Positions 9,833 to 40,130 of a stretch of DNA of 64,000 nucleotides are shown here, piece after piece. The first letter of the stretch is position 1. Every line of letters starts with the position of its first letter. This stretch comes from an uncultured Gemmatimonadales bacterium (GTDB lineage Bacteria > Gemmatimonadota > Gemmatimonadetes > Longimicrobiales > RSA9). The position numbers and the translations under genes are program-made. The stretch is from contig CAWAMW010000015.1 of assembly GCA_963783305.1 (NCBI GenBank), forward strand, positions 352,001-416,000. Reading direction: 5' to 3'. The notes beneath the pieces are model-generated. The model was given only the letters and a program-made list of their open reading frames with translations, did no database searches and was not told where the DNA came from.

Positions 9833-12800
9833 GTGACGGCAGGAGTGAAGCGGCCCGAAGCGACCGAGACGGACGCTGTGGCCGGTATCGAAGTGACCCC
9901 GGCGTCGACGCCGACGCCACTGCTCTCGGGCAACGAGGCCATCGCCCGGGGGGCCTGGGAAGCGGGCGTCCGTGTGGGCGCGGGCTATCCCGGCACGCCC
10001 AGCACGGAGATCCTGGAGGCGCTCTCGGGCTACGAGGGCGTGAGCACGGAGTGGTCGCCGAACGAGAAGGTGGCGCTGGAGGTGGCGGTGGGCGCGTCAC
10101 TGGCGGGCGCGCGGTCGCTGGCGACCATGAAGCACGTGGGCGTGAACGTGGCGGCGGACCCACTGTTCAGCGTCGCGTACATGGGGGTGAGCGGCGGGCT
10201 GGTGGTGGTGACGGCGGACGACCCGGGCATGCACTCGTCGCAGAACGAGCAGGACAACCGTCTGTTCGCGAAGCACGCGCGGATCCCGCTGCTGGAGCCG
10301 GCCACGCCGGAGGAGGCGCGGCGGTACACGGCGGAGGCGTTCCGGGTCTCGGAGGAGTACGACACGCCGGTGCTGCTCCGCACGACGACCCGTCTGTCAC
10401 ACGGCACCGGCCGGGTCCGGGCGGGCGAGCGAACGGACGTGCCGCTCAGGCCGTACCGGAAGGACCGGGAAAAGAACGTGGTGCTGCCGGCGCACGGCCG
10501 GGTGCGTCACCGGTGGATCGAGGAGCACCGGATCCCGGGGCTCAGGGGCGAGGCGGAGCACTGGGCGGAGACCATCGACGGGACGGGCGACGCGGCGTTC
10601 ATCACGGCGGGCGTGCCGTACCTGTACGTGCGGGAGTCGTTCCCGGACGCGCCGGTGCTGCGGATGGGGATGACGTACCCGCTCCCCGAGGTCGCCATCC
10701 GGCAGTTCGCGGCGCTGCACGCGGGGCGCACGATCTACGTGGTGGAGGAGCTGGAGCCGTACCTGGAGGAGCGGATCCGCGCCATGGGCATCGACGTGGC
10801 GAAGCGGCCGTGGCCGCGCTGGGGTGAGCTGAGCGTGGCGATGATCCGGGACGCGGTGTCGCCGGGGCGGTCGCTGCCGGTCGCCCCCGTGAAGCCGGGC
10901 GCCGCAGCGCCGCTGCCGGGTAGGCCGCCCGCGCTGTGTCCCGGTTGCGGGCATAGGGGAGCGTTCCACGCGCTGGCGCGGATGGACGCCATCGTGAGCG
11001 GCGACATCGGCTGCTACACGCTGGGCGCGCTCCCGCCGCTGGACGCCATGGACGCGACCATGAACATGGGCGCCTCCATCGGGATGGCGCACGGGATGGA
11101 GAAGGTGCTGCCCGCGGACCGTCGGAAGAAGCTGGTGAGCGTGATCGGCGACTCGACGTTCTACCACTCGGGCGTGACCGGCCTGATGGACATGGTCTAC
11201 AACGGCGGTCAGGGCACGGTGGTGGTGCTGGATAACCGTACCACGGCGATGACCGGTCACCAGGAGCACCCGGGCACCGGGTGCACGCTGGACCACCACG
11301 AGGCTCCGCGGATCGACATCGGCGGGATGGCGCGGGCGGTGGGGGTGGCCGATGTCAGGGAGCTGGACCCGTACGACCTGCTGGGCGCGTGGCGCACGCT
11401 GGATGGCGCGGCGCGGGCGGAGCACCCGACGGTGGTGATCGCGGAGAAGCCGTGCGTGCTGAAGGAGCGGATCAGCTTCGGTGCGGGCGTGGTGATCGAC
11501 CCGGACCAGTGCGTCGACTGCCACGCCTGCACGCGTCTGGGGTGCCCGGCCATCGAGGAGTCGGACGGACGGCTGGCGGTGAACGCGCTGCTGTGCAACG
11601 GGTGCACGCAGTGCCAGCAGCTGTGCGCCGACTGCAACGCCGGTATCGACATCTCGCTCATGCTGGAGCTGGTGGACCAGGACCGGATGGCGGAAGCGCT
11701 GGAGGTGGTGCTTCGGGCCAACCCGCTGCCGGCGGTGAGCGCGCGCGTCTGCCCGCACCCGTGCGACCACGACATCAACTCGCTGGGGTACCCGCAGGCG
11801 GCGACGTACGCCGAGCGGCACCCGGAGCTGGTGACGCGGTTCCCGGACGGGTCGGAGAAGGTGTCGGTGCGGGCGGTGGAGCGGCACGTGGGCGACTGGG
11901 CGCTGGAGCACCTGGACCCCTCGACGCTGGCGCCGAAGGAGGAGCTGGGCCGGTCGGTGGCGATCATCGGGTCGGGCCCGGCGGGGCTCTCGGCGGCGTG
12001 GTCGCTGCGGCGGGCCGGGAGTCGCGTGACGGTGTACGATTCGGCCGAAGCGCCCGGCGGGCTGCTCCGGATGGGGATCCCGCCCTTCCGGCTGTCGCGT
12101 GACGTGCTGGATGGCGAGCTGGCGCGCTGGACGGCGCTGGACATCGACTTCCGCTGCGGCGTGAAGCTCGGTCGGGACGTGACGCTGGACGAGCTGGCGG
12201 AGGAGCACGACGCGGTGGTGCTGGCGGTGGGTCACCACGCCGCGCGGGCGGTGACGCTCGACGGCGCCGACGAGGCCCCCGCCTCTGTATACGACGGTCT
12301 CGACTTCCTTCAGCGCTTCAACCGGGGCGATGAGGTGGACGTGGGCCGGAAGGTGGCGGTGATCGGCGGCGGGAACACGGCTTTGGACTGCGCCCGCGCG
12401 GCCCGTCGGCTGGGGGCGTCGGTGGAGATCCTGTACCGCCGGACGCGGGAGGAGATGCCGGCCATCCGCGACGAAATCGAGGAAGCGCGGGAGGAGGGTG
12501 TGCTGCTGCGGTTCCAGCGGAACCCGGTGCGGGTGCTGTCGGCCGACGGTCGCATGACGGCGCTCCAGCATATCGCCATGGAGCAGGGCGAGCCGGACGC
12601 GTCGGGGCGGCGGCGGCCGGTGCCCGTGGAAGGTAGCGAGGAGATCGACGCGTTCGACGCGATCATCATGGCCATCGGCGAGGAGAGCGACCTCGGGTTC
12701 CTCGCCGGGAGTGGGATCTCGGCGAGCGGCCACATCGACGTCAACTTCGCTGGCGCCACGTCGCGCCCGGGCGTCTTCGCATGCGGCGATGCGGCGTTCA

Positions 12801-12892
12801 ACCAGGGCACGGTCCCGCAGGCCATCGCAACCGGCCGCCGCGCGGCCGAGCTGGCCGTCGGCTACCTCAGGAAGACTGGTGGCAGGCCATGA
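9833..12892 (+). CDS. iorA: Indolepyruvate:ferredoxin oxidoreductase alpha subunit fused to a GltD-like FAD/NAD(P)H oxidoreductase
   Basis: SGNEAIARG, YPGTPSTEI, MKHVG, CPGCGHR, GDIGCY and GDST; two Cys-rich ferredoxin motifs; then RVCPHPC, GSGPAG, GGGNTA and YRR. Confidence 0.92.
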   Translation: MTAGVKRPEATETDAVAGIEVTPASTPTPLLSGNEAIARGAWEAGVRVGAGYPGTPSTEILEALSGYEGVSTEWSPNEKVALEVAVGASLAGARSLATMKHVGVNVAADPLFSVAYMGVSGGLVVVTADDPGMHSSQNEQDNRLFAKHARIPLLEPATPEEARRYTAEAFRVSEEYDTPVLLRTTTRLSHGTGRVRAGERTDVPLRPYRKDREKNVVLPAHGRVRHRWIEEHRIPGLRGEAEHWAETIDGTGDAAFITAGVPYLYVRESFPDAPVLRMGMTYPLPEVAIRQFAALHAGRTIYVVEELEPYLEERIRAMGIDVAKRPWPRWGELSVAMIRDAVSPGRSLPVAPVKPGAAAPLPGRPPALCPGCGHRGAFHALARMDAIVSGDIGCYTLGALPPLDAMDATMNMGASIGMAHGMEKVLPADRRKKLVSVIGDSTFYHSGVTGLMDMVYNGGQGTVVVLDNRTTAMTGHQEHPGTGCTLDHHEAPRIDIGGMARAVGVADVRELDPYDLLGAWRTLDGAARAEHPTVVIAEKPCVLKERISFGAGVVIDPDQCVDCHACTRLGCPAIEESDGRLAVNALLCNGCTQCQQLCADCNAGIDISLMLELVDQDRMAEALEVVLRANPLPAVSARVCPHPCDHDINSLGYPQAATYAERHPELVTRFPDGSEKVSVRAVERHVGDWALEHLDPSTLAPKEELGRSVAIIGSGPAGLSAAWSLRRAGSRVTVYDSAEAPGGLLRMGIPPFRLSRDVLDGELARWTALDIDFRCGVKLGRDVTLDELAEEHDAVVLAVGHHAARAVTLDGADEAPASVYDGLDFLQRFNRGDEVDVGRKVAVIGGGNTALDCARAARRLGASVEILYRRTREEMPAIRDEIEEAREEGVLLRFQRNPVRVLSADGRMTALQHIAMEQGEPDASGRRRPVPVEGSEEIDAFDAIIMAIGEESDLGFLAGSGISASGHIDVNFAGATSRPGVFACGDAAFNQGTVPQAIATGRRAAELAVGYLRKTGGRP

Positions 12893-13494
12893 AGCGAGGC
12901 ATCACGAACATCGTGCTGGCGGGGGTGGGCGGTCAGGGGTCCGTGCTGGCCACGCGGGTGCTGGCCACGGCCGCGGAGCTGGCGGGCCAGGAGGTGGTCA
13001 CGTCAGAGGTGCACGGCATGTCGCAGCGTGGCGGGACCGTCGTCACCACCGTCCGGTTCGGCGACGAAGTGCTGTCGCCGTCGGTCCCGGCCGGCGAGGC
13101 GGACTTCCTGGTGGCGTTCGAGCGGCTGGAGGCCGCCCGGCACCTGGACCTGGTCCGGGATGGCGGCGTCGCCGTGGTCAACGACCAGCGGATCGCGCCG
13201 TCCATCGAGGCGCTCAAGAGCGCCGCCTACCCGGGCGAGATCGGCGTTCGGGCCGCGGAGCGGAACGTATCAGTCCTGGTCTATCCGGCCCTCCGCCTGG
13301 CGCAGGAGCTCGGTAACGAGAAGCTCGCGAGTACCATCCTCCTGGGTGGCCTCTCCGATTTCCTCTTCCTCGAGCGCGACCACTGGATCCGCGCGATCCG
13401 GGCATCCGTCCCGCCGCACACGGTCGAGGCGAACGAGGTTGCGTTCGATACCGGCGCGGAATGGCTCGTAGGGCCGCCGACGTTTTCGTTCTGA
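12889..13494 (+). CDS. iorB: Indolepyruvate oxidoreductase beta subunit
   Basis: GVGGQG, SEVHGMSQRGG; ATGA overlap with iorA. Confidence 0.92.
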   Translation: MKRGITNIVLAGVGGQGSVLATRVLATAAELAGQEVVTSEVHGMSQRGGTVVTTVRFGDEVLSPSVPAGEADFLVAFERLEAARHLDLVRDGGVAVVNDQRIAPSIEALKSAAYPGEIGVRAAERNVSVLVYPALRLAQELGNEKLASTILLGGLSDFLFLERDHWIRAIRASVPPHTVEANEVAFDTGAEWLVGPPTFSF

Positions 13495-13502
13495 GGTAGG
13501 GG

Positions 13503-13604
13503 GAACGGTCGCTGGCGCGACCGGTCGATCGGTCGCTGGCGCGACCTGTCGAACGCTCGCTTCGCTCGCTATCGAACGCGTTGGGCTTCGCCCTCGCTAT
13601 CGAC
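13503..13604. repeat. REP/BIME-like palindromic mosaic (inverted copy at 19302-19412)
   Basis: GGTCGCTGGCGCGACC twice, plus a GGGCTTCGCCC hairpin. Confidence 0.75.
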
Positions 13605-13630
13605 CGGACACTGCCCTTTCCCCTCGCCGG

Positions 13631-14692
13631 TCAGTACTCTCGCGCGGCCTCTTCCCCGGCCAGGACCCGCTGGGCGCCCTCGGCCAGCGCCCGCAGCTCG
13701 TCCTCGCCGGGGTAGGCCGTCACCGGCGCGATCCACTGGAGCGTCCGCGTCAACTCTCCGGCCACCCGCTCGCTCTTCGCCATCCCGCCGGTGAGGAGCA
13801 CGGCGTCGACCCGGCCATCGAGGACGGCGGCCATGGCGCCGACCTCCTTCCGGAGCTGGTAGAGCATGGCGTCGAGGACGAGGCGGGCGCGGTCATCGCC
13901 GTCGTCTATGCGAGCCTCGACCTCCCGGAGGTCGCGGGTGCCCAGGTAGGAGTGGATGCCGCCCTCGCGGAAGAGGAGCCGCTCCGCGGACGCCAGGTCG
14001 AGTCCCCCGGTCAACACGCGCTCGATCAGTCGAACGGTGGGGACGGTGCCGGCGCGCTCGGTGGAGAACGCGCCCTCCTCCCGGGAATTGGTGACGTCGA
14101 TCATGCGGCCATCACGGTGGGCGGAGACGCTGTGGCCGCTGCCCATGTGGACGACGATGAGCCGCAGCTCGGCGTACAGGGCTCCCGCCTGGCGGGCGTG
14201 CCGCTTCGCCACGGCCTTGGTATTCAGGGCGTGGGAGAGGCAGTCGCGCTCCAGGCCCTCCAGGCCGGACAGCCGGGCCACGGGCGGCCACTCGTCCACG
14301 CTCACCGGGTCCACGATGAAGGATGGGCAGCCGGCGGGCTCGGCGAGTCGCCGGGCCAGGGCGGCGCCGAGGTTCGACGCATGATCGCCCCGCAGCGCCT
14401 GCCGGAGCTCGGTCAGCATGGCGTCGGTGACGCGGTAGGTGCCGCTCTCCAGTGGGCGGAGCAGCCCGCCGCGACCGACGGTGGCGCGGAGGGCCGACAG
14501 ATCGATGTCCTCCTCGTGGAGCAGGGCCAGCACGGCGGCGAGCCGACTCTCCAGCTGCGCCAGCACGGGACGCCCGCGGAACGCCGACAGCTCGGTGTCG
14601 TTGAGCTCGACGGTCGCCTGGAAGCGGGCGGTGTCGCCGTCGTATACAGCGAGCTTCGTGGACGTGGAGCCGGGGTTCAGGGCGAGGATCAC
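13631..14692 (-). CDS. buk: Butyrate kinase
   Basis: ILALNPGSTSTK, GRGGLL.P, HASNLGA, HALN.KA, YPGEDE. Confidence 0.95.
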   Translation of the reverse strand: MILALNPGSTSTKLAVYDGDTARFQATVELNDTELSAFRGRPVLAQLESRLAAVLALLHEEDIDLSALRATVGRGGLLRPLESGTYRVTDAMLTELRQALRGDHASNLGAALARRLAEPAGCPSFIVDPVSVDEWPPVARLSGLEGLERDCLSHALNTKAVAKRHARQAGALYAELRLIVVHMGSGHSVSAHRDGRMIDVTNSREEGAFSTERAGTVPTVRLIERVLTGGLDLASAERLLFREGGIHSYLGTRDLREVEARIDDGDDRARLVLDAMLYQLRKEVGAMAAVLDGRVDAVLLTGGMAKSERVAGELTRTLQWIAPVTAYPGEDELRALAEGAQRVLAGEEAAREY

Positions 14693-15606
14693 GACGCTCG
14701 CCTCGCGATGAGGACGCCGAGAGCGATGGAGTGCAGCTTGTCCTCCGCGCTCTCCACCCGCGACGGGATCAGCAGCGGGACCGCCGCGCCCACCACCACA
14801 TGGGCGGTGATGGAGCCGCCCAGGTACTTCACGCCCTTGCCCAGGATGTTGCCGGCCTCGATCCCCGGCGCGACCATGATGTCCGCCCGGCCCGCCACGG
14901 GACCCGTGATCCCCTTGGCCGCCGCGGCCGACTCCAGCAGCGCGTTGTCCAGCGCCAGCGGGCCCGCGACATCGGCGTTCGGGATCGACGCCGCCGCCCA
15001 TTCGGCGACCGCCCGCGCCGCGCCCGTCGAGGGCACCGCCTCGCTCACCGCCTCACTGGCGCTCAGCAACGCGACCCGGGGACGCTCGTGGCCCAGCGCA
15101 CGAAAGACCTCAACGGCGTTGGCCACGATGGCCTTCAGCATCTCCACATCCGGGGCAGGGTTGATCCCGCCATCCGTGACGCCCACGAGACGGGGCGCGG
15201 GGCCGAGAGTGTCCTCGTAGATCAGCACGTCGGAGAGGAGCCGACCGGTGCGGAGCCCGGCGTCGCGGTCGAGCGCGGCGCGCAGCAGCTGGTCGGTCCG
15301 GAGCGACCCCTTCAGCAGCACCCGCGCGCCCCCCTCCCGGGCCAGCGCCACCGCCCGGCGGGCCGCCTCCTCGGGGTCACCGGCCTCGACGAAGCGGGCG
15401 TCCTCGAGCCCGGCGATGGCCTCCGAGTCGATGATCGACCGGATGACCGTCCCGGCCCCCACCAGCACCGGCTCCGCCAGCCCCGCACGCGCCGCCGCGC
15501 CCAGCGCCCGGAGCCCCGATGGGCTGTCGGCCGCCACCAGCGCCACGGTCACGGCCGGCCCCTCGGCGGCGAGCCGGAGGAGGTCGGTGAAGCGGGCGGG
15601 TGCCAT
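14689..15606 (-). CDS. ptb: Phosphate butyryl/acyltransferase
   Basis: LLKGSL.T, TDGGIN..P, GPLALDNA, GRADI, GNILGK, SRVES. Confidence 0.9.
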   Translation of the reverse strand: MAPARFTDLLRLAAEGPAVTVALVAADSPSGLRALGAAARAGLAEPVLVGAGTVIRSIIDSEAIAGLEDARFVEAGDPEEAARRAVALAREGGARVLLKGSLRTDQLLRAALDRDAGLRTGRLLSDVLIYEDTLGPAPRLVGVTDGGINPAPDVEMLKAIVANAVEVFRALGHERPRVALLSASEAVSEAVPSTGAARAVAEWAAASIPNADVAGPLALDNALLESAAAAKGITGPVAGRADIMVAPGIEAGNILGKGVKYLGGSITAHVVVGAAVPLLIPSRVESAEDKLHSIALGVLIARRAS

Positions 15607-15868: not shown

Positions 15869-17191
15869 ATGGGTCGGACACGAACACTGATTCTCGGCGC
15901 CGCCGGGCGCGATTTCCATAATTTCAACGTCGTCTACCGCGGCGATCCCAATGTGGAGGTGGTGGGCTTCACCGCCGAGCAGATCCCGGGGATCGAGGGG
16001 CGGCTCTATCCGCCGGAGCTGGCGGGGGAGCACTACCCCGAGGGCATCCAGATCTACCCGGAGAGCCAGCTGGAGTCGCTCATCGACGAGCTCCAGGTGG
16101 AGCGCTGCATCATGGCCTACTCCGACGTGTCGTACGCGTACGTCATGGGTCTGGCGGCGCGGGTGAACGCGGCGGGAGTGGAGTTCGCGATGATGGGCGC
16201 GCGTCAGACGATGGTGAAGTCGTCGAAGCCGGTGGTGGCGGTGTGCGCATCCCGCACGGGCGCGGGGAAGAGCCAGACGAGCCGGGCGGTGGTCCGGACG
16301 CTGACGGAGGCCGGCAAGAAGGTGGCCGTGATCCGTCACCCAATGCCGTACGGCGACCTGGCGGCGCAGCGGGTGCAGCGGTTCGAGACGCCCGACGACC
16401 TGGTGAAGCACAAGGTCACGATCGAGGAGCGCGAGGAGTACGAGCCACACCTGGCGGCGGGAAGCGTCGTGTTCGCCGGCGTGGACTACGAGGCGATCCT
16501 GCGGGAGGCCGAGAAGGAAGCCGACGTCATCCTGTGGGACGGCGGGAACAACGATTTCGCGTTCTACCAGCCGGACGTCTACATCACCGTGGTCGACCCG
16601 CACCGCGCGGGTCACGAGCTGAGCTACTACCCGGGCGAGATCAACGTGCGGCTCGCCGACGCGATCCTGGTCAACAAGGTGGACACCGCAGACATCGCCG
16701 ACATCTTCCAGGTCGAGGAGAACGTGCGGTCGGTGAACCCCGACGCGGTGCTGCTCGAGGGCGCCTCGCCGCTCTTCATCGACGACCCGGACGTGCTGCG
16801 GGGGAAGCGCGTGCTGTGCGTCGAGGACGGTCCGACGCTCACCCACGGGGGCATGAAGTACGGCGCGGCGGTGATCGGCGCGCGGAAGGCCGGCGCGGCG
16901 GAGATCGTGGACGCGCGGGAGTTCGCGGTGGGCGAGATCGCCGGCACGTTCGAGCGCTACCCGAATATCGGGGCGCTGCTCCCGGCCATGGGCTATGGCG
17001 ACCAGCAGGTGAAGGACCTGGAAGCGACGCTGCGGAAGGCCGCGGAGGGCGGTGTGGAGGCCATCGCCATCGGGACGCCCATCGACCTGGCGCGCCTCAT
17101 CGATCTGCCGCTCCCCGCCACCCGGATCCGCTACGAGCTGCAGGTGCTGGGGACGCCCACGCTGAAGGACGTGCTGGCACCCGTGCTGTAG
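15869..17191 (+). CDS. arcE: COG2403/cDPGS-related P-loop protein; probable arginine synthetase (ArcE-like)
   Basis: GAAGRDFHNFN, RTGAGKSQTSR, RHPMPYGDL, TIEEREEYEP, WDGGNND, VEDGPTLTHGGM. Confidence 0.8.
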   Translation: MGRTRTLILGAAGRDFHNFNVVYRGDPNVEVVGFTAEQIPGIEGRLYPPELAGEHYPEGIQIYPESQLESLIDELQVERCIMAYSDVSYAYVMGLAARVNAAGVEFAMMGARQTMVKSSKPVVAVCASRTGAGKSQTSRAVVRTLTEAGKKVAVIRHPMPYGDLAAQRVQRFETPDDLVKHKVTIEEREEYEPHLAAGSVVFAGVDYEAILREAEKEADVILWDGGNNDFAFYQPDVYITVVDPHRAGHELSYYPGEINVRLADAILVNKVDTADIADIFQVEENVRSVNPDAVLLEGASPLFIDDPDVLRGKRVLCVEDGPTLTHGGMKYGAAVIGARKAGAAEIVDAREFAVGEIAGTFERYPNIGALLPAMGYGDQQVKDLEATLRKAAEGGVEAIAIGTPIDLARLIDLPLPATRIRYELQVLGTPTLKDVLAPVL

Positions 17192-36329: not shown

Positions 36330-36617
36330 ATGGTTATCAAGGTGATCCTCCTGCGGCGCGTGCCCTTGGAGGTGGCCAGCGAGCTGAAGCCGCTCCTCAT
36401 GGAAATGCGGGCGCTGGCGCTGGCGCAGCCCGGCTACGTGTCGGGTGAGACGCTCATGAACGCCGACGACCCGGAGGAGTACCTGGTCATCAGCACGTGG
36501 ACGAGCATGGACCACTGGAACACGTGGCTGAGGAACCCGGAGCGGCGGATGGTCCAGCAGCAGATCGACGGCCTGCTGGGTCGTGAGACGCTCTACCAGG
36601 TCTACTACAACGCCTGA
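36330..36617 (+). CDS. ABM (antibiotic biosynthesis monooxygenase) domain protein
   Basis: [10 protein letters not shown]...YLVISTW.S...W..W. Confidence 0.85.
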
Positions 36618-36630
36618 CGCGGGGGCCGGA

Positions 36631-38184
36631 ATGGACGGCATGGAAGGAAGGATCGAGGACCTGCTGGAGCGCCGTCGCCGGGCCATGGAGGGGGGCGGTC
36701 AGGACCGGATCGATCGGCATCATTCGCAGGGTCGCTACACCGCACGGGAGCGTCTCGACCTCCTGCTGGACCCCGACTCCTTCGAGGAGTTCGACATGCT
36801 CGTGGAGCACCGCTGCCACGACTTCGGGCTGGAGCAGCAGAAGGTCCCGGGCGATGGCGTGGTCACGGGCTACGGCACCATCCAAGGGCGCCTCGTCTAT
36901 GTGTACGCCTTCGACGCCACGGTATTCGGCGGCTCGCTCTCGGAGACCGTGGCCGAGAAGATCTGCAAGGTGATGGACATGGCCGCGAAGAACGGCGCAC
37001 CCATCATCGGGCTAAACGACTCCGGCGGCGCCCGCATCCAGGAGGGGATCGAGAGCCTCGCCGGGTACGCCGACATCTTCCTCCGGAACGTCATGGTGAG
37101 CGGCGTGGTGCCGCAGCTGTCCGGGGTGTTCGGGCCGTGCGCCGGAGGCGCCGTGTACTCCCCCGCCCTCACCGACTTCACCGTGATGGTGGAGGGCAGC
37201 TCGTACATGTTCCTCACGGGCCCGAAGGTCGTGAAGTCGGTGACCCACGAGGACGTGGACACGGAGACGCTGGGCGGCGCGGCCGTGCATACGACCCGGA
37301 GCGGTGTGGCGCACAGGGCGGAGCCCACGGAGGAGGCGGCGATCGAGCGGCTGAAGCAGCTGCTGTCGTACATGCCATCGAACAACCTGGGGACGCCGCC
37401 GCGCCTGGACGTGGTCGACCCGGTCGACCGGGAGGTCGAGAGGCTCGCCGAGCTGGTGCCGGACGACCCCAACCAGCCGTACGACATGCGCGAGGTCATC
37501 GCCGGCACGGTAGACGATGGTGAGATGCTGGAGATCCAGCCAGGATGGGCGCCCAACCTGGTGGTGGGATTCGCGCGCTACGGCGGGATTCCCGTCGGGG
37601 TCGTGGCCAACCAGCCCATGCACCTGGCGGGCGTGCTCGACAACGACGCTTCGATGAAGGGCGCCCGCTTCGTCCGGTTCTGCGACTGCTTCAACATCCC
37701 GGTGGTCACCTTCGTCGATGTGCCCGGGTTCATGCCGGGCACCACGCAGGAGTATGCCGGCATCATCCGCAACGGCGCCAAGCTGCTCTACGCCTACGCC
37801 GAGGCCACGGTCCCGAAGGTGACCGTGACCACGCGCAAGGCCTACGGCGGCGCCTACTGCGTCATGAGCTCGAAGCACCTGCGCGGCGACGTGAACTACG
37901 CGTGGCCGGGCGCCGAGATCGCCGTCATGGGCGCCCGGGGCGCGGTGGGGATCCTCCACGGCCGCGCCCTGAAGGATGCCGAGGATCCCGCCACGCTGGC
38001 GCGGGAGAAAGAGGCGGAGTACGCCGAGCGGTTCGCCAACCCGTACGCGGCGGCGCGCCGCGGCTACCTGGACGCGGTGATCCGGCCCGCCCAGACGCGG
38101 ATCCGCATCTGCAAGTCGCTCCGGGTCCTCGAAAACAAGCAGGACGCCAACCTGCCGAAGAAGCACGGCAACATCCCGCTCTGA
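36631..38184 (+). CDS. mmdA: Carboxyltransferase; methylmalonyl-CoA decarboxylase alpha subunit
   Basis: [42 protein letters not shown]. Confidence 0.9.
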
Positions 38185-38185
38185 C

Positions 38186-38545
38186 ATGGAGAACGTCATG
38201 GCAGGGGACGGTTTCGGGCTCGCGGCGGCGGGGATGCTGGTGGTAGTCACGGGGCTCGTGCTCATCAGCCTCTTCATCGCGCTGCTCCCGAAGCTCTTCG
38301 ATGGGGGCGCCGCGCTGCTCCGCCGCTGGCGAGCGCGGCCCGGACCCGCGCGGGCCGCGGCGGAGGAGCGCGCGCCGCAGCTCGCCATGGACCCCTCGCT
38401 CCTGGCGGCCATCGGGATGGTGCTGGAGGCGGAGCGGGCGCGGGAGCTTTCTCAGGACCGGCAGCGGATCACGCTGCGCGATGACACCGAGCAGAGGGTG
38501 TGGACCGCCATCGGCAAGATGCGGACACTGTCGACGAGGCTATAG
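38186..38545 (+). CDS. mmdD: OadG/MmdD family subunit
   Basis: N-terminal TM helix, LAAI segment, W..IGK; position in the operon. Confidence 0.8.
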   Translation: MENVMAGDGFGLAAAGMLVVVTGLVLISLFIALLPKLFDGGAALLRRWRARPGPARAAAEERAPQLAMDPSLLAAIGMVLEAERARELSQDRQRITLRDDTEQRVWTAIGKMRTLSTRL

Positions 38546-38550
38546 AGGGC

Positions 38551-39003
38551 ATGCGGCGCTACGAGCTGGAGGTCAACGGGAAGGCGTTCACCATTACCGT
38601 CCGGGAGTTCTCGGGCGATCACGCGGAGCTCGAGATCGATGGCGAGCGCTATGCCGTCCGGGTGGATGACGTGGTCTCCGACGGCCCGAAGACATCGCCG
38701 GTCCAACCCACGAAGTCGCTGGCGGCCGCCGGTGAGAAGGCGGCCGCGGCCGGGGCGGCGCACGCGCCAGCGGTGGGGCCTGGCGGACTCACGGGGGCCG
38801 TGCTGGCGCCCATCCCCGGCCAGATCCTGGAGATCCTGGTCTCCGAGGGAGATGAGGTGCAGGCGGGGAAGCCCCTCCTGGTCATGGAGGCGATGAAGAT
38901 GGAGAACGTCATCAACGCCCCTACCGCCGGCACGGTGGGCCCGATCATGGTCCGCACCGGGGATGCCGTGACACAGGGGCAGGAGCTGCTGGTCATCGCC
39001 TGA
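38551..39003 (+). CDS. mmdC: Biotin carboxyl carrier subunit
   Basis: EAMKM biotinylation motif, Ala/Pro-rich linker. Confidence 0.92.
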   Translation: MRRYELEVNGKAFTITVREFSGDHAELEIDGERYAVRVDDVVSDGPKTSPVQPTKSLAAAGEKAAAAGAAHAPAVGPGGLTGAVLAPIPGQILEILVSEGDEVQAGKPLLVMEAMKMENVINAPTAGTVGPIMVRTGDAVTQGQELLVIA

Positions 39004-40130
39004 TGAAGACCCTCCTCGACTTCCTGGGCCAGAGCGGGTTCGCCAACGTATCGGCCGGCAACCTGCTCATGATCGCCATTGGCGCGGTCTTCATCTCCCT
39101 GGCCATCATCAAACGCTACGAGCCGCTCCTGCTGCTCCCCATCGGCTTCGGCGTGATCGTCGGGAACGTGGCGGTCATCCCGGGCATGAACCTGAGCGCG
39201 TACGACCCGGGCAGCGTCCTCTACTACCTGTACCTGGGCGTCTCCCAGGGCGTGTACCCGCCCCTCATCTTCCTCGGGATCGGGGCGATGACCGACTTCT
39301 CCACGCTCCTCTCGAACCCGAAGCTGGTGCTCCTCGGCGCCGCTGCCCAGGTCGGCATCTTCCTCACGCTCATCGGCGCGCTCTACCTCGGCTTCACCCC
39401 CGCGGAGGCCGGCGCCATCGGGATCATCGGCGGCGCCGACGGCCCGACGGCCATCTTCCTCGCCTCCCAGATCGCCCCTCACCTGCTCGGCGCCATCGCC
39501 ATCGCCGCCTACTCCTACATGGCCCTCGTACCGGTGATCCAGCCGCCCATCATGACGCTGCTGACCACGCGGGCGGAACGACGGATCCGGATGGCACCAC
39601 CGCGGAAGGTCTCCAGGCGCGAGAAGATCGTCTTTCCGATCGGCACGTTCGTCATCACGGCGCTGATCGCCCCCGGCTCCATCGTGCTCATCGGCATGCT
39701 CATGTTCGGCAACCTGCTGAAGGAGAGCGGCGTAACCGAGCGGCTGGCGCAGACCGCCCGGACAGGGCTCATCGACATCGTCACCATCCTGCTCGGCTTC
39801 TCCGTGGGAACCAGCACACAGGCCCAGACGTTCCTCACCGCACAGTCGCTCGGCATCTTCGCCCTCGGCGCCCTCTCCTTCGCCATTGCCACCGCGTCGG
39901 GCGTCCTGGCCGCGAAGGGCATGAACCTGTTCCTCCACGACAAGATCAACCCGCTCATCGGTGCCGCGGGCGTTTCCGCGGTCCCCGACTCCGCCCGCGT
40001 CGTACAGCACGTCGGACAGAAGGAGGACCCGGACAACTTCCTCCTCATGCACGCCATGGCCCCGAACGTCGCGGGCGTGATCGGATCCGCCATCGCGGCC
40101 GGTGTGCTCTGGGCCGTACTCGTCGTCTGA
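39003..40130 (+). CDS. mmdB: Na+-translocating decarboxylase beta subunit
   Basis: EPLLLLPIGFG, GIIGGADGPT, GVSAVP, NVAGVIGSA. Confidence 0.95.
   Translation: MKTLLDFLGQSGFANVSAGNLLMIAIGAVFISLAIIKRYEPLLLLPIGFGVIVGNVAVIPGMNLSAYDPGSVLYYLYLGVSQGVYPPLIFLGIGAMTDFSTLLSNPKLVLLGAAAQVGIFLTLIGALYLGFTPAEAGAIGIIGGADGPTAIFLASQIAPHLLGAIAIAAYSYMALVPVIQPPIMTLLTTRAERRIRMAPPRKVSRREKIVFPIGTFVITALIAPGSIVLIGMLMFGNLLKESGVTERLAQTARTGLIDIVTILLGFSVGTSTQAQTFLTAQSLGIFALGALSFAIATASGVLAAKGMNLFLHDKINPLIGAAGVSAVPDSARVVQHVGQKEDPDNFLLMHAMAPNVAGVIGSAIAAGVLWAVLVV

Follow-up and report, generated by a model that had tools for sequence, protein, structure and literature searches.

We analyzed a window of 64,000 nucleotides, i.e., the whole stretch of contig CAWAMW010000015.1 from an uncultured Gemmatimonadales bacterium introduced above, and concentrated on a gene that joins IorA, the large subunit of indolepyruvate oxidoreductase (IOR), to a flavin adenine dinucleotide (FAD)- and NADP(H)-binding module of the GltD/NfnB type. 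The fusion is a single open reading frame (ORF) that starts with GTG and contains no internal stop. Its stop codon overlaps the start of iorB (ATGA), and a ptb-buk gene pair lies downstream in convergent orientation. The features of the locus are as follows, where conservation counts, here and below, refer to 102 aligned rows (the query and its 101 full-length homologues) and 2-oxoacid:ferredoxin oxidoreductase is abbreviated OFOR.

9833 to 12892, plus strand: iorA::gltD-like fusion ORF, 1,019 amino acids (101 full-length homologue clusters; AlphaFold2 model)
9920 to 11467, plus strand: IorA PYR, domain II and PP domains, residues 30 to 545 (PF01855, PF02775, TIGR03336)
11486 to 11632, plus strand: IorA 2x[4Fe-4S] ferredoxin domain, residues 552 to 600, with Cys560/563/566/571/588/591/594/598 (all eight in 102/102 rows)
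11633 to 11932, plus strand: truncated GltD iron-sulfur (Fe-S) domain, residues 601 to 700 (PF14691; alignment to NfnB 4ylf_B)
11777 to 11857, plus strand: family-specific insertion of ~20 amino acids, residues 649 to 675 (conservation; two short predicted helices)
11945 to 12877, plus strand: FAD and NADP(H) Rossmann domains, residues 705 to 1015, with GSGPAG, R753, GGGNTA, YRR and GD
12889 to 13494, plus strand: iorB, OFOR gamma-type subunit, 201 amino acids (PF01558, E = 5e-38)
13631 to 14710, minus strand: acyl kinase of the butyrate kinase family (buk), convergent with iorAB (TIGR02707 above cut-off)
14689 to 15600, minus strand: phosphate acyltransferase of the ptb family, upstream of buk (PF01515; Ptb models below cut-off)

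Residues 30 to 599 match the IorA model TIGR03336 over model positions 4 to 591 of 595 (634 bits, E = 2e-190, narrowly below the cut-off of 650.9), with the PYR-II-PP-ferredoxin domain order of that profile; the fused homologues score between 606 and 654 bits on the same model, with one of them exceeding the cut-off. Residues ~582 to 1014 match GltD-type models, PRK12771 being the best (E = 9e-103), followed by TIGR01316 (E = 2e-87), and the adrenodoxin-reductase-like FAD/NAD(P)H domain by which GltD-like proteins are recognized (PMC8097209) is present. The motifs GSGPAG, GGGNTA and YRR are located at residues 713 to 718, 845 to 850 and 868 to 870, respectively, and the linker SARVCPHPCDHDI at residues 636 to 648. 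For the iorB product, IorB models rank first yet stay below their cut-off (NF005322, 195.9 versus 237), and iorB also follows the fusion in loci L002 to L011 and L016. The first-pass annotation, made from the sequence alone, had described a 1,019-residue ORF running from a full IorA into a GltD/SudA-type module, with these motifs and this linker and a translationally coupled iorB, all of which we found as stated.

The full query is covered by 101 of the 120 homologues (clusters) listed, at 47 to 93% identity; of the others, 12 are incomplete sequences that nevertheless reach across the junction, and 7 do not span it by our criterion. Their source names include Longimicrobiales, Gemmatimonadota and Bipolaricaulota/Acetothermia, and many of them are named in the databases plainly as IorA or as “FAD-dependent oxidoreductase.” The junction (11632/11633) is crossed with 0 gaps by contigs of sequencing runs X1, X2 and X4, which come from three studies; the X1 contig is identical to the window, possibly because it represents the source sample, and the X2 contig (1,123 nucleotides) shows 85 differences. 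No RNA run was listed among the matching ones. The stop or frameshift at the junction that the first-pass annotation had named as a possible objection is absent. Codon bias is alike in both halves (G+C content at third codon positions of 0.94 and 0.92). Given the 101 full-length homologues and the gap-free contigs from three studies, the fusion is real and conserved, and neither a chance event nor a misassembly. The AlphaFold2 model of the whole chain has a mean predicted local distance difference test score of 90.7 and a predicted template modeling score of 0.86, and structure alignment with VIA-align places model residues 593 to 1017 on residues 42 to 464 of NfnB (4ylf_B; Z = 40.2, root mean square deviation [rmsd] of 2.6 Å over 402 residues). 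None of the 60 PDB sequence matches listed is a solved relative over the full length.

The junction itself is best understood from the Fe-S ligands. Unfused IorA controls (n = 67) end a median of 11 residues past the ferredoxin domain, whereas the fusion runs for ~420 residues more. Fifteen ligand cysteines are invariant (Cys369/372/394/541, Cys560/563/566/571/588/591/594/598 and Cys601/640/644, each in 102/102 rows) and Glu683 is kept in 100 of the 102; E78 and D440 (GDS motif) are likewise invariant in the IorA part, whose thiamine pyrophosphate (TPP) and Fe-S motifs are retained in 101 to 102 rows. By analogy with the OFOR family, we take E78 and D440 to serve the TPP site and Cys369/372/394/541 to hold the PP-domain cluster. 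In NfnB, the ligands given in a passage of PMC7596348 are C39, C42, C47 and C100 for the distal cluster and C51, C90, C96 and E117 for the proximal one. In the alignment to 4ylf_B, the proximal positions are filled by C601, C640, C644 and E683, by which measure the FAD-proximal Cys3-Glu ligand set is intact. The residue that maps on the distal ligand C100 is I648, and since this position is a cysteine in 0 of the 102 rows, the distal GltD cluster, as formed in NfnB, is predicted to be unable to form here. The first-pass suggestion that one cluster may be lost was thus right about the outcome and wrong in its reasoning from the first cysteine of the linker motif: S636, the serine found there, maps on NfnB Cys86, a residue absent from the ligand list.

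C591, C594 and C598 align with NfnB C39, C42 and C47, yet they belong to the second ferredoxin motif of IorA. In the sequence alignment as well as in the structure alignment, C598 falls at NfnB C47 and C601 at about C51. This points to C598, the last ferredoxin ligand of IorA and at the same time the residue aligned with Cys47, as the splice point. In the usual pairing of 2x[4Fe-4S] domains, C598 would bind the cluster of C560/563/566. With C598 in this double position, this ferredoxin-domain cluster would occupy the usual site of the distal cluster, and the ferredoxin domain of IorA probably takes the place of the distal GltD cluster. The chain would then hold four [4Fe-4S] clusters between TPP and FAD, with their occupancy and geometry predicted from the ligand pattern. 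Directly after the missing distal cysteine follows the ~20-residue insertion, in which N649 and G652 (101/102 rows each) and F670 (99/102) are conserved and for which the AlphaFold2 model predicts helices at residues 655 to 662 and 664 to 669.

On the acceptor side, the TPP and FAD motifs are intact in the fusion family, and GGGNTA together with YRR is found in 100 to 102 of the 102 rows (Y868 in 101, R869 in 101 and R870 in 100). Passages of PMC7596348 connect YRR with a specificity of DsrL and NfnB for NADP(H) and describe the YRR enzyme DaDsrL-2 as strictly NADP(H)-specific and devoid of NAD(H) activity, so that YRR would narrow the predicted acceptor from NAD(P)+ to NADP+. Regarding direction, IORs with kinase and transferase neighbors are, according to a passage of PMC13285125, catabolic with ATP formation, while those with AMP-forming ligases are biosynthetic; the same source reports that the kinase linked to the Clostridium difficile IOR favors arylacetates. 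The ptb-buk pair of the window recurs in all five long fusion loci from other genomes (L127 to L131). The donor potential of such reactions lies near -0.50 V, and with this value we computed NADP+ reduction to be downhill by ~25 to 35 kJ/mol, for which reason the reverse direction would need an extra driving force. The substrate, assigned by family only, is most likely an aryl-2-oxoacid. A GltD-like gene occurs in only 1 of 77 unfused iorAB loci, and in the source genome (G000) we found a single copy of IorA, the fused one, and no unfused copy.

We therefore favor, with a probability of about 0.6, the reading that the fusion and IorB form a catabolic, CoA-acylating 2-oxoacid:NADP+ oxidoreductase, most likely acting on aryl-pyruvates from aromatic amino acids. 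In this enzyme, the 2-oxoacid would be decarboxylated at the TPP site with formation of acyl-CoA, and single electrons would travel from the PP-domain cluster via both ferredoxin-domain clusters of IorA to the proximal, Cys3-Glu-ligated cluster in the GltD module, then on to FAD, from which a hydride would be transferred to NADP+. The acyl-CoA would be converted to the acid plus ATP by the adjoining Ptb/Buk pair, and the NADPH could be used by DsrL-DsrAB, PntAB or biosynthesis. While the architecture, its conservation, the pattern of motifs and ligands, the gene context and the repeated origin (see below) are seen directly in the sequences, we infer the NADP+ specificity, the direction, the substrate, the independence from ferredoxin and the sinks of NADPH; the proposed mechanism is well constrained. 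Of the two options given in the first-pass annotation, wiring to NADP+ inside the chain or bifurcation, the former thus agrees with the conservation of the ligand and cofactor motifs and becomes more specific through YRR.

Several observations weigh against this reading. The ptb-buk pair, on the opposite strand, also adjoins 23 of the 77 unfused iorAB loci, so that it supports the catabolic direction and not a special role of the fusion. Sequence is reported to predict OFOR substrates poorly (a passage of PMC12873857), and the IorA and IorB matches fall slightly short of the curated cut-offs. The proximal cluster of NfnI has been assigned a potential of -718 mV (a passage of PMC8097209), which would mean an uphill step if the same value applied here. 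As for the proposed sinks, dsrA was unmatched in 12 of the 20 fusion-bearing genomes of the family. Finally, the source genome encodes free ferredoxin and Rnf, so that the ferredoxin domain could still pass electrons to ferredoxin.

This last point leads to the main rival, in which the fusion would be an IOR carrying its own ferredoxin:NADP+ reductase and would keep its ferredoxin domain open to free ferredoxin, such that electrons are split between NADP+ and ferredoxin, or NADPH reduces ferredoxin, e.g., for benzoyl-CoA reductase or Rnf. Such a dual role is reportedly also held by the 2-oxoglutarate oxidoreductase (KGOR) of Azoarcus, and benzoyl-CoA-reductase-like genes lie directly upstream of the fusion in one relative (L127). 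This is, however, only one of the four broadly annotated fusion loci (L127 and L129 to L131), bcrB was unmatched in the source genome, and the ferredoxin domain is locked covalently into the chain, flanked by the PP domain and the proximal cluster and next to the conserved insertion, all of which makes us consider this alternative rather unlikely.

Bifurcation or confurcation of the Nfn type appears clearly less probable still. Here, the FAD would be bifurcating, and a high-potential partner acting in trans would couple NADPH oxidation and NAD+ reduction to the supply of low-potential electrons for the TPP site, or the system would run the opposite way. Bifurcating Nfn/Stn subunits are indeed the closest among the solved structures, and R753 aligns with NfnB Arg187, which we presume to have a role in this chemistry. 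In NfnAB, NfnA is required for the high-potential branch (as described in a passage of PMC8097209), but neither the locus contains an NfnA-type FAD/[2Fe-2S] partner gene nor does the 96% complete source genome yield a match to PF10418 (NfnA type), and no partner gene is conserved across the fusion loci. Six fusion-bearing relatives do have PF10418 matches; the four that were checked all proved to be gamma subunits of group 3b hydrogenases in hydrogenase operons, and we rejected a link between them and the fusion. In addition, the same module serves the nonbifurcating GltS and DPD, according to a section of PMC8097209. The bifurcation option of the first-pass annotation is therefore unsupported.

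A third alternative, which we regard as very improbable, is the anabolic direction, i.e., NADPH-driven reductive carboxylation of aryl-acetyl-CoA for aromatic amino acid synthesis. This direction has been proposed for IORs of methanogens and Bacteroides (a passage of PMC13285125), and GltD modules usually deliver electrons from NADPH (a passage of PMC8097209), but the reaction would be uphill by the ~25 to 35 kJ/mol given above without bifurcation, and the conserved neighbors are a kinase and a transferase instead of the AMP-forming ligase of anabolic IORs. Marginally less probable again is the same wire with NAD+ as the acceptor: NAD+ would be the better acceptor in vivo and YRR is missing in about a third of a second class of fusions (type II; see below), but YRR is kept in 100 to 101 of the 102 rows of the present class (type I), and DaDsrL-2, with the same residues, lacks NAD(H) activity (a passage of PMC7596348). 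An assembly artefact or a decaying, functionless appendage, to which a few homologues with frameshift-like tails or without the NADP domain (P0113, P0128 and P0111) could point, is practically negligible, being refuted by conservation (101 full-length clusters with invariant ligands); the gap-free contigs and the equal codon bias of the halves also speak against it.

How does the favored NADP+-reducing oxidoreductase relate to known systems? With IorAB of the Pyrococcus furiosus type (TIGR03336/TIGR03334), it shares the domain order, a separate, adjoining IorB, the TPP and Fe-S motifs and the frequent ptb/buk neighbors, and it differs in the FAD/NADP(H) module of ~420 residues, in that the ferredoxin domain is not the chain end and in its predicted acceptor, NADP+. 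Pyruvate:NADP+ oxidoreductase (PNO) of Euglena is a single chain of pyruvate:ferredoxin oxidoreductase and a cytochrome-P450-reductase-type FMN/FAD module that reduces NADP+. Like the fusion, it is thus a single-chain OFOR joined to an NADP+-reducing flavin module; unlike PNO, the fusion combines IorA with a GltD-like flavin part, and no P450-reductase-type domain is found among its 23 Pfam matches. Phenylglyoxylate:NAD+ oxidoreductase PadEFGHI is a multisubunit, NAD-linked enzyme of another OFOR family, which shares with the activity predicted for the fusion the oxidation of an aryl-2-oxoacid with a pyridine nucleotide as the acceptor (NCBIfam NF045762/64/66).

A bacterial precedent is KGOR of Azoarcus evansii (Ebenau-Jehle 2003). 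This 2-oxoacid oxidoreductase uses NADP+ as its acceptor, and its alpha subunit is listed among GltD-like proteins in PMC10134865. It belongs to another OFOR family with another substrate, and its GltD-like part is listed as a separate subunit, a comparison that draws on this listing and the title only. The first-pass annotation had cited Euglena PNO as a precedent with a different module; the flavin module is indeed different, but the precedent is incomplete, given this bacterial enzyme with a GltD-like subunit already in print. DsrL/PRK12771 proteins provide the nearest NCBIfam model of the C-terminal half and share with it the FAD/NADP(H) module, including the YRR motif that marks DsrL of type 2, specific for NADP(H), while the fusion lacks their C-terminal 2x[4Fe-4S] domain (it ends at the FAD domain) and their distal cluster, is joined to IorA and is located outside a dsr cluster. 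DsrL-like genes linked to por genes are mentioned in a passage of PMC7596348. NfnB/SudA, NfnA(BC)/StnC, GltD and DPD share the fold (Z of 36 to 42, rmsd of 2 to 3 Å), the proximal Cys3-Glu ligands and YRR, but the fusion lacks the distal ligand as well as an NfnA, GltB or DHODH partner, having a TPP enzyme as its partner instead. Since it fails one tested feature of each, the fusion cannot, by its sequence features, be classed as a standard IorA, GltD/NfnB or DsrL protein. Our full-text literature search, with most subscription papers and supplements outside its scope, did not turn up any account of IorA joined to GltD, nor was a passage on such enzymes found in the part covered of an NADPH review (PMC4518329). 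A 2-oxoacid:NADP+ oxidoreductase is a known kind of enzyme, of which the IorA-GltD fusion would be a new and apparently unstudied version.

The type II fusions came to light when representatives at 50% identity were searched with a profile and the best 150 were examined. IorA and GltD matches occurred together in 38 of these 150; two were set aside, one as a fragment of type I and one because its match was partial, which left 36. These 36 representatives (P0154 to P0255) are mostly 1,100 to 1,190 residues long and combine an IorA whose internal ferredoxin motif is not intact with a DsrL-like module, whose whole layout they keep: the distal cysteine is retained in 35 of the 36, the C-terminal ferredoxin motif in 34 and the YRR residues in about 25. 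The S636-equivalent position is a cysteine in only 16 of the 36, and the ~20-residue insertion is not present in type II fusions, in the por-linked subunit described below or in DsrL. Among the members, P0159 is named Deltaproteobacteria bacterium and P0163 (1,384 residues) also carries IorB; the representatives also include fusions of IorA and IorB, in either order, that lack a GltD module (P0184, P0297, P0248 and P0277).

In an IorA tree of 115 rows, unfused IorAs separate types I and II, and an approximately unbiased (AU) test rejected a single clade of both types (difference in log likelihood of 187, p = 2e-55), with the test run on a 36-row subset picked after inspection of the tree and with groups defined by architecture. 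On these two grounds, the sequence comparison indicates that the pairing of IorA with GltD evolved at least twice, with type II arising separately. The GltD part of type I forms one group with a support of 95 (18 of the 102 rows used) and splits into three subgroups that match those of the IorA tree, which suggests that type I goes back to a single old fusion.

In the family of the source genome, 22 of 73 genomes have an IorA and 19 of them the fused junction. In the other three, a contig edge lies inside the junction motif (G462, counted as fused), only a fragment is present (G468) or the IorA is unfused and of another lineage (G014). Genomes flagged as unpublished (G020, G021 and G024 in the family, G026 in the order) enter the tallies only as no-match rows. 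The junction is rare beyond the family: in a sample of the phylum, it was found in 2 of 401 genomes, both from the window's own genus, and a scan of genome contigs gave, among the matches listed, at least one fused locus of 79, with the rest used as the unfused controls.

Regarding the possible outlets of NADPH, dsrA is found in 8 of 20 fusion-bearing genomes versus 1 of 52 other genomes of the family (G468 left out; the genomes are kin and not independent), and 8 of the 9 dsrA-bearing genomes carry the fusion. We treat this association between fusion and Dsr as a lead and not as a result. The source genome contains dsrA, dsrB, a YRR-type dsrL and genes for an NrfD- and Fe-S-type membrane complex (G000:C16:79397-87979; L102, L135). 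An 82-residue ORF between dsrB and dsrL (C16:81211-81456, minus strand) has no significant Pfam match, and a search with PF08679 (DsrD) gave no match anywhere, controls included. On the same contig, an operon has the order porC-[GltD-like gene]-porA-porB (G000:C16:202008-206380; L097, L101), in which the GltD-like product matches PRK12771 and has a C-terminal ferredoxin and YRR; this is apparently a second 2-oxoacid oxidoreductase wired to NADP(H), as judged from its genes. A close homologue of its GltD-like subunit is present in 19 of 20 fusion-bearing genomes versus 4 of 52 others, with adjacency to por checked in G000 only. The source genome also has PntB, several matches to heme-copper oxidase subunit I and five strong matches to E1 dehydrogenases.

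Some further observations concern the surroundings. In the source genome, a region directly upstream of rnfC (G000:C2:277000-289114; L134) contains, in one run, two-subunit OFOR genes, an unannotated 328-residue ORF, an RnfB-like gene and a very long PFOR-like ORF of up to 1,775 residues. The fusion of one relative is directly preceded by benzoyl-CoA-reductase-like, oah-, had- and PaaX-like genes (L127:80-8975), which were not found in G000; as this is one locus only, a dedicated benzoyl-CoA reductase role of the fusion was rejected. Operons for group 3b NAD(P)-linked [NiFe] hydrogenases occur in four fusion-bearing relatives (L122 to L125) and might be a further sink for NADPH. In the window, a 440-residue P-loop protein with weak Pfam matches only (cobW, E = 3e-6) is encoded divergently from ptb (15869 to 17191, plus strand) and is the same neighbor in L127 and L128. 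An operon resembling Na+-translocating methylmalonyl-CoA decarboxylase (alpha, biotin carrier and beta) is located at 36583 to 40127 (plus strand). The gap between iorB and buk (13500 to 13610) contains a short, repeated, GC-rich motif with similar sequence in contigs of other runs and loose ends near 13557 to 13603, which suggests a dispersed repeat resembling repetitive extragenic palindromic (REP) elements. Finally, the segment 3800 to 7300 is lower in GC (about 0.59 to 0.60) and holds several small genes, which on inspection resemble toxin-antitoxin pairs (Doc/Fic-, PIN- and HigBA-like).

IORs are generally regarded as ferredoxin reducing, and metabolic models would misroute the electrons of fusions annotated as IorA. 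The proposed splice at a shared cysteine illustrates neatly how evolution can connect Fe-S wires. If the favored reading is true, the fusion would open a direct path from amino acid catabolism to NADPH and yield a catalyst of two subunits that works without ferredoxin and can be assayed simply at 340 nm. It would also be a candidate source of the NADPH that organisms with DsrL-2 need for sulfite reduction, as described in a passage of PMC7596348. Tentatively, and with low confidence, we extend this to the possibility that 2-oxoacid oxidation in these bacteria has been systematically rewired from ferredoxin to NADPH, with OFORs linked to repeatedly recruited GltD/DsrL-type modules (the por subunit, the type II fusions and the type I splice that replaces the distal cluster), and that such ferredoxin-free enzymes may be a main supplier of the NADPH on which facultative bacteria of the Longimicrobiales type draw for DsrL-dependent sulfite reduction.

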